From sequence record NC_027378.1: a stretch of 56,776 nt of DNA, one strand, 5' to 3'. A model generated the notes under the pieces. The model made no database searches. It was not told the origin of the DNA and saw only the letters and a list, made by a program, of their open reading frames with translations. How positions within the stretch are numbered: the stretch's first letter is position 1; each line of letters begins with the position of its first letter. The DNA is from Escherichia phage Seurat. Of the stretch, positions 8,902 to 48,518 are shown one piece after another. A program made the position numbers and the translations under genes.

Positions 8902-9825
8902 ATGGCTACAGGTTCACGTTATTCGTGTTACTACGTCAAAGAAGATGTAAGCAACACAACTCCAGCGAACGCAAAGTTTACCCCGTTTCGTGTAACGAGT
9001 TCCGGTCTGGATATTAACATCGCGACGCTGGAGTCTGAAGAGCTGCGCGATGACGCAGAAACCGCAGACTTCCGTCTTGGCGCTCGAAGCGTTGAAGGTA
9101 CGGTAACAGGCGAAATGTCCTTCGGTACATTTGACGACCTCATTGCGGCAGCACTGCGCGGTGAATGGCAAGACAACGTCCTTAAAGGCGGTATTGTCCG
9201 TCAGTCATTTACTTTTGTAGACTATAACGCAGATCTGCCGTCAGGTAAATATACAATCTATCGTGGTTGTGAAGTTAATAGCATGACTTTCTCATTGTCT
9301 GCTGAAAACATGACAACAGTAGAGTTCGGTATTGTTGGTCGCTCGATGGAAATTGCGGAATCGCTCCCATCTGGTGCAACTATCAACGCGCGTACAACTA
9401 CTTCTCCGATGGACGGCTTCTCTGGTCGCTTGCTGGAAAACGACGAAGAGATCAGCGTTATTACGGAAATCGGTCTTACCGTTGAAAACGATATCGCTCC
9501 GCGCTTCGTTGTTGGCTCAAAGTTCTCCATTGAACCGTCTGCTGGTCGCCGTGCTGTAACTGGTACAGCTAACGTTTACTTCCTGGATAACAAGCTGCGT
9601 ATGAAGTATCTGGATGAAGTGGAAACTTCAATCAAGTTTGATCTGATTGACCCAAGCAATCCGGAACAAAAATACACTGTGGAAATCCCTCGCGTGAAAT
9701 TCACTGAAGCTCCACGTCCTATTGACGGTGAAGGGGATATCATGCTTAATATGGGCTACCGCGGATTGCTGGACCCAACAACCGCAAGTTCCATCAAAAT
9801 TACCCGCGTTTTAGCGGCAGAATAA
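8902..9825 (+). CDS. major tail (tube) protein (putative)
   Basis: 307 aa; immediately upstream of the G/GT chaperone and tape measure genes. Confidence 0.6.
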   Translation: MATGSRYSCYYVKEDVSNTTPANAKFTPFRVTSSGLDINIATLESEELRDDAETADFRLGARSVEGTVTGEMSFGTFDDLIAAALRGEWQDNVLKGGIVRQSFTFVDYNADLPSGKYTIYRGCEVNSMTFSLSAENMTTVEFGIVGRSMEIAESLPSGATINARTTTSPMDGFSGRLLENDEEISVITEIGLTVENDIAPRFVVGSKFSIEPSAGRRAVTGTANVYFLDNKLRMKYLDEVETSIKFDLIDPSNPEQKYTVEIPRVKFTEAPRPIDGEGDIMLNMGYRGLLDPTTASSIKITRVLAAE

Positions 9826-35698: not shown

Positions 35699-36580
35699 TT
35701 ACTGCTGCCACGGCGGGACTGCTGCTTGTGCTGGATGCGGTTCAGCTTGCTGCTGCGGCTGAGCTTGCTGCTGAGGCGCTGCTGCCTGACCCGGCTGTGC
35801 TACCTGCTGCGCCCACGGCTGCTGAGCTGCTTCCGGTGCTACTGGCTGTTGTACCGGAGCTTGCTGCACTGGCTGCTGTGGTGCTGCGTTTTGAGCAGGA
35901 TTATCCCACGGCTGCGGTGCTGCGTTCTGCCACGGTTGAGCTGCTGCGCCCTGCTGCGGTGCTGGTTGCTGCACAGGTTGCTGAACAGGCTGCTGTTGCT
36001 GTACCGGAGCTTGCTGCTGTACAGGTGCTTGCTGTTGCTGAGCAAACGGGTTAGCTGCTGGCTGCTGTGGCGCTGCGCCCGGGAAAGTTGGCTGCTGTGC
36101 TGGCGCACCTGCACCAAACGGGTTAGCTACTGCTGGAGCACCCATTGATGGAGCCTCTGCTGCTTTTTCTGCATATTTAACCGGATCGTTGATGTTAGCG
36201 TAACCGTTAGGCTCGTTGCTGTCTTCATAACCTTCCTGAGAACGAACTTTCAGACGCAGGTTCAGCGGAATGTTATGCAGCTGAGCAGGGGTATCCCAGC
36301 GAATTACACCAACCGCATGGGACAGAGCACCCAGTTGCTCGTAAGCGATGCGTACAGTATCTTCGTTGTCGTTAATGACGTTATAACGAGCAAAGATTTT
36401 ACGCCCTTTAGCAAAACCGTCAATGATGCTAAACGTTACCTGGATCGCCATACCGCCATTTTTGGTCGGTTTAAATTCAGATGCTTCAATTACTGCTTTA
36501 TACCAACCTTTCGGCAATGCGCCGTAAGAAGGTGCTTGATAGCTGCTCGCGTCAAAGTGGAAATTAGTTGGCATAGTCAT
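35699..36580 (-). CDS. putative ssDNA-binding protein with a Gln/Pro/Ala-rich disordered C-terminal tail
   Basis: Globular N-terminal about 150 aa, then about 140 aa of QQPVQQ/APQQ repeats; adjacent to the Sak4-like ATPase. Confidence 0.45.
   Translation of the reverse strand: MTMPTNFHFDASSYQAPSYGALPKGWYKAVIEASEFKPTKNGGMAIQVTFSIIDGFAKGRKIFARYNVINDNEDTVRIAYEQLGALSHAVGVIRWDTPAQLHNIPLNLRLKVRSQEGYEDSNEPNGYANINDPVKYAEKAAEAPSMGAPAVANPFGAGAPAQQPTFPGAAPQQPAANPFAQQQQAPVQQQAPVQQQQPVQQPVQQPAPQQGAAAQPWQNAAPQPWDNPAQNAAPQQPVQQAPVQQPVAPEAAQQPWAQQVAQPGQAAAPQQQAQPQQQAEPHPAQAAVPPWQQ
35700..36130. repeat. CAG/CTG-rich low-complexity coding repeat tract
   Basis: Repeated GCTGCTG/CTGCTGC units encoding the Q/P/A-rich tail; generates spurious ORFs in several frames. 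Confidence 0.7.
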
Positions 36581-41307: not shown

Positions 41308-41805
41308 TTATTGGATTGAACCGCGATCAATTAGCCATTGTTTCGCGTGCGCTTTAAAAATAATGCGGTAGTCATCAAGACTAATTTCCGCGCGGATGGA
41401 ATCTTTAACTTCATACCACTGCCATTCACCATTACTGAAGACAACCGGATTAAGTGGTAGAACAACCTTCCATCCTTTACGTTCTATTTTATACATCAGA
41501 ACTGGATATCTGCCAAGCTCTTTAGCAGATTGAACAGTCTGCTTCCACCATGTGTTTACTTGTGGTGTAGCATGGTTTTTTACTTCAACTGCATGGTGAC
41601 ATGTATTGCTAATGTCGCAACCACCGACCGCACTTTGATTCTGGTTACGCTGAGCAATAGGTTTTTCCGGTAACTGCATCCCCAGCTCTGCGTAGATTTC
41701 GGCATAAATTGCATTAAAGAAATCACATACTTCCCGCTCACCGCGTTGACCTTTAGCGCGAATATTTACTGCCATGTTTGTCTCCATAACTTTAATGTAA
41801 AACAC
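41308..41805 (-). CDS. PD-(D/E)xK endonuclease, Hjc-like Holliday junction resolvase (putative)
   Basis: KGQRGEREV...GGCDISN...HAVEVKN pattern. Confidence 0.5.
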   Translation of the reverse strand: MFYIKVMETNMAVNIRAKGQRGEREVCDFFNAIYAEIYAELGMQLPEKPIAQRNQNQSAVGGCDISNTCHHAVEVKNHATPQVNTWWKQTVQSAKELGRYPVLMYKIERKGWKVVLPLNPVVFSNGEWQWYEVKDSIRAEISLDDYRIIFKAHAKQWLIDRGSIQ

Positions 41806-41847
41806 TTCATAAAGAATTTTATATTGAAGTTATGTTGATCGCAAGGA

Positions 41848-41880
41848 ACAAAAAAGCCCAGGCATAAGGATTCCTGGGCT
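41848..41880 (-). terminator. intrinsic terminator
   Basis: AGCCCAGG-aatccttatg-CCTGGGCT followed by TTTTTT on the minus strand. Confidence 0.6.
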
Positions 41881-42192
41881 CTCTTGATTGTCGGATAGCT
41901 TACTTTGACTGCCGTCTTCGTCTACCCTGGCCTACTTGTACAGCCTCGCCAAAGGCTGGTGACGGTTTGGTACATCTGGCGCCGTCTCGTTAAACATCGT
42001 TTACATCGTTCAGTAAGTTGCGGGTTTACCCTGTCCGCTCCAGGAAGCCCAGCGAAAGTAGTTGCTGTAAGGAGGTACAGCTACCGCTTTCAAGGGCTTG
42101 AGTTAAGCATCGTTCACTAAGTTAATGTTGTTAAATTGTTAAACCTCGTTAACTGTGGTTATCTTAAAGGATGCAGTCTTGAATGGCAAGCT

Positions 42193-42510
42193 TCAATTTT
42201 GCGCGGTTCCCTTTGCCGCTTTTGGTGCTAAAGTACCGTCGTCTAACATCAACTCAAAACCTGTTACTTGATCGGTTGGAACAATAGGGTAATTCATAAT
42301 AGCCATGTGGATACGATTCCCTCCGTCACATTCATCGATGTATTCATTACCCCAATAGTATAAATGCCCATCTCTTCGAATATCCATTGCTGTTGGGAAA
42401 TCTACAAGAATTCTTTTGATTTCTTTTCGTCCTTCTTTATGTAGATTAGTTTCAATACGGATAAGCTCCGCATAAATTGCTTCACAGATAGTGTTTACAA
42501 TACTCATCAT
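42193..42510 (-). CDS. hypothetical protein
   Basis: 105 aa. Confidence 0.4.
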   Translation of the reverse strand: MMSIVNTICEAIYAELIRIETNLHKEGRKEIKRILVDFPTAMDIRRDGHLYYWGNEYIDECDGGNRIHMAIMNYPIVPTDQVTGFELMLDDGTLAPKAAKGTAQN

Positions 42511-42945: not shown

Positions 42946-43170
42946 ATGGTCATGCTGAATAAAGTATATAGCACAATGAGCGCGGATTATAAAGTTGTAC
43001 GTCACCCGCGTACTGGTAAATTTGAAGCATATATCCGTCCAATGGGTGAAGGTTGGATGTATTACGGTACTTATGACGACGCTGAGCAAGCTTATGAAGA
43101 AGCGGAAAGTGCGGCGGAAGCATCCGAAATTATGGCAAGGTACGACATCGATGATTACTATCTTAACTAA
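42946..43170 (+). CDS. small acidic protein on the opposite strand within the leftward block
   Basis: 74 aa; RBS GGAGG; own terminator downstream. Confidence 0.5.
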   Translation: MVMLNKVYSTMSADYKVVRHPRTGKFEAYIRPMGEGWMYYGTYDDAEQAYEEAESAAEASEIMARYDIDDYYLN

Positions 43171-43174
43171 TAAT

Positions 43175-43199
43175 AAAGGGCCGAAAGGCCCTTTATTTA
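43175..43199. terminator. bidirectional intrinsic terminator
   Basis: AAAGGGCC-gaaa-GGCCCTTT followed by TTTATTTAT on plus, T-rich on minus. Confidence 0.6.
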
Positions 43200-45539
43200 T
43201 TCCTCTTCACCTAAGTTTGCCATAATTCCTTCAACATCTTGCGTAATGCGCCAAGCTGCCCCAGTAAATCCCAGTTTAATAGTCTCCTCCCGTGTTACCG
43301 GAACAAGTGCACCCATAGCAACCATTTCCTTGATTGTAGACTCGATTGCAGCGGACAATCCGTGATGATAGTTTTTAAACGCGGACTTACTTGCAAGACG
43401 CGTAGTAATATCACCCCGCGTGATAATACCTTCTTTGCGCAAATCTACACGTTTAACTTTGACCCAGTCTTTAGTTAGATAATTCACACAGACCTGACAC
43501 ATAGTACGGATACGAGCTTCATCGTTAGTCCCGATACCGCCGCTATGCCATTCCTTCATAATAATGTCCTGTCCATGTCGCACAAAGTCCAAAGCCCATT
43601 GCACATGATATGTCTGTACCACCGGATTGATCCAGTTTTCCCCAACTGCTAACAGGGCGGATAGACGTAACACCTTCAGGTGAGCACGGTTCCAGGGCTG
43701 ACGGATTGCTTCGTCTTTGGTTGCGTTAATATTACGGTCACATTCGTCGTTAAACTGATCACATAATGCTTCCGCTTCTGGACTAAACTGCACTTCAATA
43801 CTTTGATGCTTTGCCATTGCGACTAAGGTGTGGTTAACAAGATGGCACACCATATCACGCAAATGCTGATCCATTGTAGTCTGCTGGTTCTTGTTTAAAG
43901 GTGGTCGATCACCTTCATAGCGGACAACATGGAAACGGGATAAGAATCCATCCTCCATCATTTCACGGGTTAACGCTTCAAAAAACGTGTCCGGTGTTGT
44001 TTCGCCCATGATGCTATAGGCCACACCTTGTTGAGCTTCCGTATTATTAGCCTTATCAGAATAAGACATACCACCAACAATAGACATCTGACCGGACTTT
44101 TGATAAACATCGGTAAGATCATTCTTGAAGCTTTGCATCGGTGAACCTGCTGGCGCCGTAGCCATTGCTTTAATAATCTTACCAAACTCACCGTTCAAGT
44201 TGATAAAAGATTGTTTGTCTGCAAAAGATTTACGCAGTGCGGAGCCGGAAGCGCATCGGTCAAATGATACAAAGCTATGAATCTGCGGAAACGGTTCCTG
44301 AAGCTGGCTAACTATATTAGATAGACCACTGTTCAACGTTTCTTTACCAACACCAGAACGAGCAATAAGGACAAAATATCCATTAAGACCGGATTGAGGA
44401 ATCTGCCAAACCTTCCCGCATACGCCAGCCATAAATCCTAGTGCTGTCACAATAGAAATTTCTTTCACTGGTCGGACGGATGCCTTGTAGATGTACTTCG
44501 CAAGCTCCCCAGCAAGTCCCGGCGGCCAGTCAATGGCGGTTGCATCAATAGACGTACTTTCTGCAACTACGGTCTGCCCCTGTGTTGTTTCAACAGTTAC
44601 GGGCATTTCCGCTACCTGTTGCATTGCACTGTGTGCCGCTTGCATACGGGCAGCATAATCCCGCGCCAGCGCCGCTACGTTTTCCTGGGCAATGCGCTCA
44701 CGCTCCATGCGACCGCGACACATACGCAAGCAACGGTCAATATGAACATTGTTCTTATTAGCCTTCTCACGTTTGCCCAGTGCGCTATAACGGAACAGAC
44801 GACGACATTGCTCATTACTTTCCGTGTAAAATGCATACATAGAAATAAGGGCAAGGTCTGCTTCAGACTGGGAAGGGAATCCCATTTCAACCCATTCACC
44901 ATTGAATAGGCGTGCATACTTATCTCCGTTGTCCGCTTCAAGTGCACGCTGGTGAATAGTTGCATCGTCTTCTACCGGATCTTTTTCTACCAGTTCAATT
45001 TCATATGTCTTGCGCTGAAGATCAATTTCATTCACAAGCATAGTAAGATAATGATCGCGTTCGGCAACTGGTTTGTTATAGACAGGATTACCCGTGCAGA
45101 TAATAAAACGCTCCTGACTATAAACTTCGACACCATCACGTCGGCGACCTTTACCGATGTTTCCTCTTAACCACAGGTGAACGCCCAAGCCTGAGCGACT
45201 TACTTCGGTGTAAGTGTCGAACGCAGTCATGATCTGTTCGAAGCGACGCAATTGCTCCGGCGTAGTGTGCTTCTTGGGGTCCGGTTCATTGGTTGCGTTC
45301 TTCACATCCAGGTCGATGCAGGTGAACGGGTCTTGTGCAGTAAGCACGAAGCCAATATAAGGTTTATTGAAATGAGCGGCGCAACCTTTGGCAGCTTCAA
45401 ACGTCATAAGCATATCCGGATCGGTAACGTCCGCCGCCATCAAACGTCCAATATCGTTATCCCATACGAGCGGCTTTTTGTCCGTATCGGCGACAGCCCA
45501 TTGTGGGAAAGCTTTAATTTCAGCGGGAAACAGTTCCAT
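43197..45539 (-). CDS. DNA primase-polymerase (AEP-type) fused to a C-terminal helicase/NTPase
   Basis: N-terminal FTCIDLDV and SGLGVHLW primase motifs; PriCT-like SEADLALISMYAFYTE; Walker A LIARSGVGKET. Confidence 0.75.
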   Translation of the reverse strand: MELFPAEIKAFPQWAVADTDKKPLVWDNDIGRLMAADVTDPDMLMTFEAAKGCAAHFNKPYIGFVLTAQDPFTCIDLDVKNATNEPDPKKHTTPEQLRRFEQIMTAFDTYTEVSRSGLGVHLWLRGNIGKGRRRDGVEVYSQERFIICTGNPVYNKPVAERDHYLTMLVNEIDLQRKTYEIELVEKDPVEDDATIHQRALEADNGDKYARLFNGEWVEMGFPSQSEADLALISMYAFYTESNEQCRRLFRYSALGKREKANKNNVHIDRCLRMCRGRMERERIAQENVAALARDYAARMQAAHSAMQQVAEMPVTVETTQGQTVVAESTSIDATAIDWPPGLAGELAKYIYKASVRPVKEISIVTALGFMAGVCGKVWQIPQSGLNGYFVLIARSGVGKETLNSGLSNIVSQLQEPFPQIHSFVSFDRCASGSALRKSFADKQSFINLNGEFGKIIKAMATAPAGSPMQSFKNDLTDVYQKSGQMSIVGGMSYSDKANNTEAQQGVAYSIMGETTPDTFFEALTREMMEDGFLSRFHVVRYEGDRPPLNKNQQTTMDQHLRDMVCHLVNHTLVAMAKHQSIEVQFSPEAEALCDQFNDECDRNINATKDEAIRQPWNRAHLKVLRLSALLAVGENWINPVVQTYHVQWALDFVRHGQDIIMKEWHSGGIGTNDEARIRTMCQVCVNYLTKDWVKVKRVDLRKEGIITRGDITTRLASKSAFKNYHHGLSAAIESTIKEMVAMGALVPVTREETIKLGFTGAAWRITQDVEGIMANLGEEE

Positions 45540-47903: not shown

Positions 47904-48518
47904 TTAACCCTCCAAGCCGTTATATTTGCGCCAGGCGTAGAACTGAATGGCTACCGTCGTCCCGTTGTAAGAAGGCATTGCAGCTTTCATTTCTTTCAGC
48001 TCCGGCGTGCGGCCCAGTTCCTTCAGAAGCTTGTCGCCCATTGCCCACACTTCGGCAGTTTTTCCTTTCAGGGGCTTGCGAGCGCCATTTTTGAAATCAC
48101 AGCGAGCAGCTTTTACATCCTGTTTTGGCGCGGCAGCTTTTGGCTCTTCAATTTTGATTTCAGAAACCTGCGTGGCAGCTTTTGCGTGTTTCATATCTTT
48201 CTCTTCCTCCTGCTCCAGAGCTTCGAGGCAGCTTTTGACGATTTCCGGATTTACCATCGGGCGCAGTACCGAGACGCTGGCAGCTGGCGCGGCGGTCGGT
48301 GCCGGGACTTTCTGCTCCGGCTGTTGCGCTTTTTCGTGATCGCGAAGCACCTGAAGCACTTCCTTTTCGACAATGTAAAAACCGATGTCGTCCTGATGAA
48401 TTAACTGTTCGTGTGCGTCGCGTGCAACCTGACCCCAACGGTTCTTCAGGGCGCGGCGTGCATTCGTTTTCATGGTGTAACGCATTTTGTCCTGTTCGCG
48501 GTGAGTTACTTTAGACAT
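47904..48518 (-). CDS. hypothetical early protein
   Basis: 204 aa. Confidence 0.45.
   Translation of the reverse strand: MSKVTHREQDKMRYTMKTNARRALKNRWGQVARDAHEQLIHQDDIGFYIVEKEVLQVLRDHEKAQQPEQKVPAPTAAPAASVSVLRPMVNPEIVKSCLEALEQEEEKDMKHAKAATQVSEIKIEEPKAAAPKQDVKAARCDFKNGARKPLKGKTAEVWAMGDKLLKELGRTPELKEMKAAMPSYNGTTVAIQFYAWRKYNGLEG

Follow-up and report, generated by a model that had tools for sequence, protein, structure and literature searches.

We analysed a stretch of 56,776 nucleotides from Escherichia phage Seurat (sequence record NC_027378.1; hereafter the window), which covers nearly the whole genome of a CAjan-like siphovirus (Queuovirinae, genus Seuratvirus). Seuratviruses serve as model phages of the BASEL collection and are known for their 7-deazaguanine DNA. 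Inside the replication module of the window, where the neighbouring genes all run leftward, lies an element of about 300 nt that an initial annotation had picked out from the sequence alone as non-coding (41881–42192). Upstream of it are an NrS-1-type primase-helicase gene (43197–45539, leftward), the element being about 1 kb downstream of that gene, and, in between, two small leftward genes, gp61 and gp60 (gp60, 42193–42510, 105 aa). On the other side, a PD-(D/E)XK 'RusA-like' resolvase gene (41308–41775, leftward) is followed by a dUTPase gene and further replication genes. Base composition also sets the element apart, its structured core having 51–54% GC against 32–44% GC in the neighbourhood. 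On the minus strand, positions 42189–41850 read as a complete, self-contained transcription unit between two replication-gene operons, and the features described below make it very probable that a discrete structured RNA is made from this strand.

The unit opens with a promoter, P1, which begins 4 nt past the stop codon of gp60. A promoter scan placed its −35 box, TTGCCA (42189–42184), and its −10 box, TAAGAT (42166–42161), on either side of a 17-nt spacer (42161–42189, minus strand). This sigma-70-type architecture, TTGMMA-N17-TAAKAT, is common to four diverged lineages while the spacer sequence varies: it reads TTGACA-N17-TAATAT in Salmonella phage STP-SP5 and in the metagenome contig L016, and TTGCAA-N17-TAAGAT in Hafnia phage yong3. 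At the other end, the leftward intrinsic terminator that the initial annotation had taken as a boundary proved real by sequence and fold (41850–41884, minus strand). It has a 13-pair stem with a GCCCAGG/CCUGGGC core, a 10-nt loop and a U6 tail (AGAGAGCCCAGG-AAUCCUUAUG-CCUGGGCUUUUUU, 41884–41850); a consensus terminator scanner missed it because of the 10-nt loop. An intrinsic terminator is found about 300 nt past P1 in every lineage. It is kept in STP-SP5, L016 and yong3, with a different stem sequence in yong3, and phages with an HNH endonuclease gene have another terminator instead (GCGCAGCG-UGAAAA-CGUUGCGC-U6).

Host RNA polymerase would start at the conserved P1 and stop at this strong terminator, so that the predicted primary transcript spans about 305 nt (41850–42154, minus strand), its start being placed from the promoter consensus only, 7 nt past the −10 box, and its end at the U-tract. 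A second promoter found by the scan, P2 (TTGCGA-N17-TAAAAT, 41816–41844, minus strand), lies past the terminator and ahead of the resolvase and dUTPase genes, where it would restart the downstream resolvase operon; it is kept in STP-SP5 and L016 and reads TTGCAA-N18-TATAAT in yong3. Thus, the element has what is generally expected of a small-RNA gene, its own promoter and an intrinsic terminator, each conserved in relatives. An inverted repeat of 23 nt (41785–41834; 83% complementarity, gap of 4 nt) overlaps both promoter P2 and the resolvase gene's ribosome-binding region; it could act as an operator or as a 5′ hairpin of the mRNA. A literature search gave no paper on transcription in Seuratvirus.

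How is the predicted RNA built? Two near-identical 16-nt direct repeats had been noticed in the element, and both are there, CATCGTTCAGTAAGTT at 42004–42019 and CATCGTTCACTAAGTT at 42108–42123, matching at 15 of 16 positions with a spacing of 104 nt. By our own arithmetic, the chance expectation for such a match is about 7×10−4, counting some 6×10^4 position pairs in a 340-nt stretch. The 9-nt sequence GAACGATG, which is repeated in the element, was found nowhere else across the 56.8-kb window. Between the 16-mers lie two more repeat pairs in register (spacing 104–105), giving three pairs in all. The 16-mers are in fact the first 16 nt of two larger modules (minus-strand reading AACUUAsUGAACGAUG) and the best-kept part of their duplication. 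As delimited by the repeats and by alignment, module 1 (104 nt; 42020–42123, minus strand) runs from the linker AACUUAGUGAACGAUGCUUAAC through hairpins P2 and P3, and module 2 (113 nt; 41907–42019, minus strand) from the linker AACUUACUGAACGAUGUAAACGAUGUUUAAC through hairpins P4 and P5 to the start of P6. Global alignment of the two modules scored 69, against 34±5 in shuffled sequences (0/1000 as high).

Each module has a linker with the consensus AACUUAnUGAACGAUGyUUAAC, which is predicted to be unpaired. Ahead of the modules, an A/U-rich 5′ leader (42121–42153, minus strand) carries four of five direct UUAAC (in DNA, TTAAC) repeats, the spacings being 10, 8, 9 and 19 nt and the fifth copy starting at 42106. 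Nowhere else in the window is TTAAC so densely clustered (6 per 100 nt, the next best reaching 4), and repeated UKAAYGAUG and UUAAC motifs are shared by linkers and leader. In outline, the predicted RNA has an unstructured A/U-rich leader and, after it, diverged modules of about 104 nt in tandem, of which there are two, or three in one variant. The variant is the metagenome contig L020 (ERZ1026901 NODE-154, ~1265), in which a third module of about 108 nt is inserted between modules 1 and 2. It resembles module 1 (score 57, 1/1000 shuffles) and has its own GC-rich hairpin together with a covarying copy of hairpin P3 (CUGU-ACUGGAUAAAC-ACAG). Across all lineages the module spacing is kept at 103–109 bp while the copy number of the 9-mer varies, phage Dru_SM1 having one additional 9-nt GAACGATGT unit; yong3 has other repeats at the same place, GTTAACAAG twice and CTGAACTA twice.

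Covariation was measured on an alignment of 11 distinct sequences, in which RNAalifold reported 14 pairs with compensatory changes. A curated structure made of P2, P3, P4, P5, P6, the inner P6 hairpin and the terminator comprises 59 pairs; 98% of the cells are paired and 12 pairs are compensatory, as compared to 2.6±1.3 in shuffles (0/500 reaching the observed number) and 1–3 when the partners were slid. With yong3 included, the P4/P5 alignment has 11 pairs, all cells paired and 3 pairs compensatory, a number reached by 9/500 shuffles and by none with the partners slid (0 compensatory pairs). With the allele of phage VogelGryff included, the P6 alignment has 9 pairs, again with 100% of the cells paired, and 5 compensatory pairs (0/500 shuffles). 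In total, six helices have covariation support. G-U combinations occur in 13 pairs (60 cells) and A-C combinations in 5 pairs (5 cells), and because the G-U wobbles outnumber A-C we assign the fold to the minus strand. The predicted transcript folds with a minimum free energy of −92.6 kcal/mol, and the z score is −2.39 for the minus strand versus −1.52 for the plus strand. The other general mark of small-RNA genes, a conserved secondary structure with compensatory substitutions, is therefore also present, and the short hairpins that had been noticed between the repeats are real, the 55-nt one folding with z = −5.5.

Two of the hairpins expose loops that are better kept than their stems. Hairpin P2 (42045–42099, minus strand) is an irregular structure of 55 nt with the apical loop ACCUCCUUA (42076–42068). 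Across three lineages (window, STP-SP5 and L016) about half of its stem positions have changed and each sequence still folds into an extended hairpin whose tip shows CCUCC (z = −5.5, −4.5 and −4.3), nine pairs showing compensatory changes. The loop reads ACCUCCUUA in the window and in STP-SP5, and is identical at 9/9 positions to the last 9 nt of Escherichia coli 16S rRNA, the anti-Shine-Dalgarno sequence. A longer similarity to the 16S tail is weakly above chance (17/500 shuffles). Hairpin P4 (41961–41986, minus strand), the most conserved part of the element, has a GACGG/CCGUC stem and a 16-nt loop, CGCCAGAUGUACCAAA (41981–41966). This loop is the same in all lineages including yong3, bar one U/A position, while its stem covaries, to GAGGG/CCCUC in yong3 and to GCGG/CCGC in L016.

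The remaining hairpins are P3, P5 and P6. P3 (42020–42038, minus strand) has a GCGG/CCGC stem, with a C-G to U-A change in STP-SP5, and the 11-nt loop ACAGGRUAAAC. P5 (41941–41958, minus strand) pairs CAGCCU with AGGCUG around the loop UUGGCG and has two pairs with compensatory changes and one with a G-U intermediate. As read from the sequence, UGGCG of the P5 loop has its complement, CGCCA, in the P4 loop; since this match never varies, covariation neither supports nor refutes a contact between the two loops. P6 (41893–41927, minus strand) consists of a GGRUAG/CUAUCC stem round the inner hairpin GAC-GGCA-GUC and the motif CAAAGUAAG, with compensatory changes at 5/9 pairs, and has a diverged allele, AAUAAGG/CCUUAUU, in the VogelGryff group. 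Five Seuratviruses of this group (VogelGryff/Dru_SM1; L005, L006 861–1373) carry an HNH homing-endonuclease gene between the RNA and the resolvase gene. From …GGCUGUACAA on (window ~41806–41935), these phages have a diverged allele of both the resolvase (61% amino-acid identity) and the 3′ part of the RNA, namely P6 and the terminator, a pattern that suggests recombination or co-conversion around the endonuclease insertion.

The initial annotation had named conservation in relatives and covariance-model scans as ways to check the element. It is present in 33/33 CAjan-like records and in yong3, that is, in every Seuratvirus record examined. Positions 41700–42300 share 97–100% identity with 27 phage records and 79% with STP-SP5. 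Between the window and STP-SP5, DNA identity is 79.5% for the element, 63% for gp60 (protein 43%), 56% for dUTPase and 85% for the resolvase, so that the element is more conserved than two of the three neighbouring genes compared. Outside the genus, it was not found at the syntenic position in Nonagvirus 9g, Klebsiella phage K9PH25C2, Providencia phage PSTCR7 or Pantoea phage Vid5. A P4–P5 covariance model run against 83 sources, including 80 IMG/VR loci around resolvase homologues, matched the window and yong3 only, and when IMG/VR, metagenomes and 100,000 species genomes were scanned with patterns, only Seuratvirus-like contigs or chance matches came up. E. coli genomes and plasmids gave no match, either as a source or as a long antisense target.

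The covariance scan likewise matched no known family: Rfam 15 gave 0 matches at the gathering threshold in the window, only chance-level matches in 41700–42300 (E of 4.6 or higher), and none in STP-SP5, L016, L020 or yong3. As the initial annotation had said, no tRNA is recognisable; ARAGORN found 0 genes in the window and Rfam gave no tRNA match even at E≤10, whereas the same Rfam search recovered the tRNA-Ser of Vid5. No description of the element was found in the literature. Judged by these comparisons, the element is a new, Seuratvirus-restricted family of predicted phage non-coding RNA.

The syntenic slot itself varies among the phages examined, holding a non-coding RNA gene here and in Vid5, where a tRNA-Ser gene (L014 3197–3284) lies upstream of the resolvase gene, and small ORFs elsewhere. 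In WildeMaa (L003 1578–1880) and STP-SP5 (L004 2159–2461), a 100-aa ORF that has no Pfam match and is not in the window stands between promoter P2 and the resolvase gene; the same additional ORF is likely in Greed and SHIN8, judged from a match about 300 bp longer. An analogous RNA in Nonagvirus was considered and rejected: the 457-nt gap upstream of the 9g resolvase gene holds a conserved unannotated ORF of 76 aa (L011 3085–3315; Nonagvirus loci L032–L041), with about 5% DNA divergence and only 2 amino-acid changes; behind it lie a highly conserved non-coding segment of about 150 nt and a terminator.

What does the RNA do? The initial annotation had offered a small RNA, a long structured untranslated region (UTR) or a protein-binding element, and had missed the promoter, the 104-nt modular duplication, the anti-Shine-Dalgarno loop and the invariant 16-nt loop. 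Of its three options, the small RNA is favoured by the promoter, the terminator, the leftward-strand covariation and the conservation, and the repeated TTAAC and GAACGATG motifs may alternatively bind a protein. Taken as a whole, the data are best explained by a structured non-coding RNA gene of about 300 nt acting in trans via exposed loops, a reading to which we give a probability of roughly 0.55. The RNA would act through the sequences that selection keeps exposed: (i) the CCUCC/ACCUCCUUA loop, (ii) the 16-nt P4 loop and (iii) the repeated linkers. Pairing of the CCUCC loop with Shine-Dalgarno sequences would block ribosome binding, and regulation of translation by such anti-Shine-Dalgarno pairing is a tentative proposal. 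The U-tailed terminator and the A-rich stretches would suit a chaperone such as Hfq; of the features expected of Hfq-dependent RNAs, a tail of six or more U is present (U6), the leader offers only short AAN runs for an A-R-N or U-rich binding site, and no target was found within the phage.

A bolder version, which we consider improbable, is that ACCUCCUUA held in a stable hairpin mimics the 3′ tail of 16S rRNA and reprograms translation during infection. At strong Shine-Dalgarno sites, an RNA made early from a host-type promoter would compete with ribosomes; alternatively, it would act as a decoy for a factor that works on the 16S 3′ end. In either case, the invariant 16-nt loop of the second module would dock it to a conserved host partner. 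The strong Shine-Dalgarno sites in the phage are ordinary ribosome-binding sites.

Several observations weigh against an RNA acting in trans via its loops. First, yong3, the most distant homologue, keeps only the promoter, the repeats, P4, P5 and the terminator; its CCUCC hairpin is absent and the place is taken by a hairpin with a P4-like loop, so that anti-Shine-Dalgarno pairing can be neither the sole nor the ancestral function. Second, scans for loop complementarity and for duplexes within the phage stayed at chance level and gave no target, the best phage match for the P4 loop (9121–9136) lying inside a coding region. Third, the covariation signal is carried by only about five independent lineages. 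Finally, the helically phased TTAAC and 9-nt GAACGATG repeats near the primase-helicase gene also fit DNA iterons.

This last point leads to a replication origin or another DNA-level element, in which the repeats would serve as iterons, with an initiator or regulator of the phage acting on them. P1 transcription would open the duplex or give a primer, and the displaced minus-strand hairpins would present a priming site to the NrS-1-like primase-polymerase. The location fits, in the replication module and 1 kb downstream of the primase-helicase gene, and so does the arrangement of the repeats: the densest TTAAC cluster of the window has five copies at about 9–10 bp, the two 104-bp units are about 10 helical turns apart, the 103–109 bp spacing is kept while the number of 9-mers is variable, and the repeats evolve in concert, as seen from the different ones at the same place in yong3. 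The segment adjoining the element is AT-rich (34% GC), and an AT-rich segment beside clustered repeats near replication genes is typical of iteron origins. The primase-helicase has an NrS-1-type helix-bundle domain. The NrS-1 enzyme recognises and primes at 5′-TTTGGTTA-3′ on single-stranded DNA, with loose specificity (PMC8718748), and the plus strand of the invariant P4 loop, TTTGGTAC, resembles this site; however, the resemblance extends to only 6/8 bases of a site for which the enzyme has that loose specificity (PMC8718748).

Other features of the element fit an origin less well. The strong conserved terminator points to a released RNA rather than a persistent hybrid, and at least 12 compensatory pairs with a G-U bias are unexpected for protein-binding sites in double-stranded DNA. 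In addition, no conserved DnaA box was found, and related genera with a homologous primase are without the element. The turning points of the GC skew, at about 21 and 47 kb, lie away from the element, but skew tracks gene orientation here and says little: its cumulative peak (~21 kb) and minimum (~47 kb) coincide with the two gene-orientation switches, and several short direct repeats lie at 46.1–46.7 kb. The other repeat clusters examined as a possible origin elsewhere, for example at 48126–48237, were rejected since they lie inside ORFs. On balance, we regard an origin at this site as a serious rival, though an unlikely one.

We give equally little credit to an RNA that sequesters or scaffolds a protein, the linkers (UKAAYGAUG-YUUAAC, 3–5 copies) and/or CAGGR motifs binding several copies of a host or phage protein in the manner of CsrB. 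Such a role would be consistent with two to three modules, a variable copy number of the 9-nt unit, linkers that are conserved and predicted to be unpaired, and concerted evolution of the repeats within lineages; CAjan-type copies also have CAGGAUA twice and CAGGAAU once. However, no candidate partner protein emerged, gp60 having no Pfam match and no homologue in yong3. A sponge for CsrA specifically is unlikely, as two of three CAGGA motifs read CAGGG in the window, the motifs are polymorphic among near-identical phages and yong3 is without GGA.

Could the structure simply serve the neighbouring genes in cis? As a structured 3′ UTR and terminator of the primase operon, or as a leader or attenuator of the resolvase operon, it would insulate the two units and stabilise the upstream mRNA. 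Indeed, no terminator separates P1 from the upstream genes, so that transcripts reading through would have the element as their 3′ UTR, and CUGGGCUU occurs in the window both at the base of hairpin P2 and in the terminator, which could allow alternative pairing. Yet a dedicated, consensus-like promoter is conserved directly ahead of the element, the downstream operon has a promoter of its own, and invariant loops and 300 nt of covarying structure go far beyond the needs of a terminator or insulator. Neither STP-SP5 nor L016 keeps the possible antiterminator pairing; an attenuator or riboswitch leader was rejected on the ground that the CUGGGCU duplicate is changed in these two while their terminator is unchanged. 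We therefore hold a purely cis-acting role to be quite unlikely.

Two more specific RNA classes were rejected. A type III toxin-antitoxin system (ToxI-like) does not fit repeats that are 104 nt long and diverged, a separate promoter past the terminator, or a downstream gene that encodes a PD-(D/E)XK resolvase and is also found in the checked phages without the RNA. An RNA anti-CRISPR was considered because GCGCCAG…AAACCG and GGAUAAACC resemble the type I-E repeat, but local alignment to the E. coli CRISPR repeats did no better than chance: 148/500 shuffles for I-E and 43/500 for I-F were as good or better, and the CRISPR-repeat hairpin is absent from the element.

A small protein, from a plus-strand ORF of 53–71 aa or a short minus-strand ORF, is extremely unlikely even though the ORF at 41905–42120 (+) is annotated in KS_A8 (CDS0066) and in records of BASEL-collection phages (e.g. 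WildeMaa bas23_0064), because the 71-aa ORF is not conserved but truncated and frame-shifted in STP-SP5, the indels between lineages (1, 2, 8 and 9 nt) are not all multiples of three, the Shine-Dalgarno-like TAAGGAGGT on the plus strand has no start codon after it, and substitutions track base pairs, not codons. This agrees with the absence of a convincing ORF in the initial annotation, and the hypothetical protein in GenBank at 41905–42120 (+) is probably a false gene call.

Some features of the surrounding genes are worth recording. The sole rightward gene of the leftward block, gp62 (42946–43170, +; 74 aa), has a weak match to an AP2 DNA-binding domain (E = 0.006, below the Pfam cut-off). 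It ends in an 11-bp hairpin (43172–43197), listed by the scan as a plus-strand terminator, which abuts the end of the primase gene and may serve both strands. In yong3, 9g and Vid5, too, the primase gene is followed by a small gene on the opposite strand. Further along the window, dense imperfect repeats of the GCTGCTG type (35727–36132), with periods that are multiples of 3, lie in a leftward gene block and are presumably low-complexity coding sequence.

Characterised non-coding RNAs of virulent phages are few. A conserved structured RNA of 300 nt that runs from promoter to terminator within the replication module offers a clean, genetically tractable case of what may be a new phage riboregulator or an RNA associated with replication. 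The alignment and the structure allow an RNA family model to be built and GenBank records with the spurious protein to be corrected. Were the anti-Shine-Dalgarno loop functional, a phage could use it to disturb the initiation of translation by simple, RNA-based means; were the repeats iterons, the origin of this phage group would be located.

How does the element compare with known systems? Like the large phage-associated RNAs GOLLD and ROOL, it is a structured, conserved, phage-borne RNA that appears not to be cis-regulatory, but it is much smaller, is confined to one phage genus and has no match to their Rfam models. With CsrB and RsmZ it shares repeated modules, short motifs repeated in loops and linkers, and a variable number of modules; their defining GGA motifs, in contrast, are not conserved here (GGG in the window, none in yong3), and again there is no Rfam match. 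Origin-associated transcripts and iteron origins include ColE1 RNA II, oriF and oriG of T4, the primary origin of T7, and the ori and crr sites of phage P4, which are bound by its primase-helicase, crr consisting of two long direct repeats that hold short repeated motifs. The element resembles these in having a promoter that feeds a repeat region beside replication genes, and two long repeats with short motifs. It differs from the ColE1, T4, T7 and P4 cases in that the predicted RNA ends at a strong terminator and shows extensive RNA-type covariation with a G-U bias; moreover, the P4 alpha protein is unrelated to the primase of the window, whose role as an initiator is putative.

The closest parallels for an RNA acting in trans are regulatory RNAs with exposed loops. 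In Staphylococcus aureus, C-rich apical loops of RNAIII and RsaE pair with Shine-Dalgarno sequences. Similarly, a stable hairpin of the element displays CCUCC in its apical loop, where the motif is kept while the stem covaries, whereas the element has one such loop per RNA, none in yong3, belongs to phages of a different host clade, shows no homology to these RNAs, and its pairing is predicted. Finally, lambda OOP, prophage DicF and IpeX are trans-acting small RNAs with their own promoter and intrinsic terminator. The element has no sequence or Rfam relation to them and, unlike them, is about 300 nt long (three to five times longer), is built by modular tandem duplication and belongs to the replication module of a virulent phage. 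Yet it has the same general make-up, that of a self-contained, ORF-less unit with a U-tailed terminator hairpin and a conserved loop sequence predicted to be exposed.

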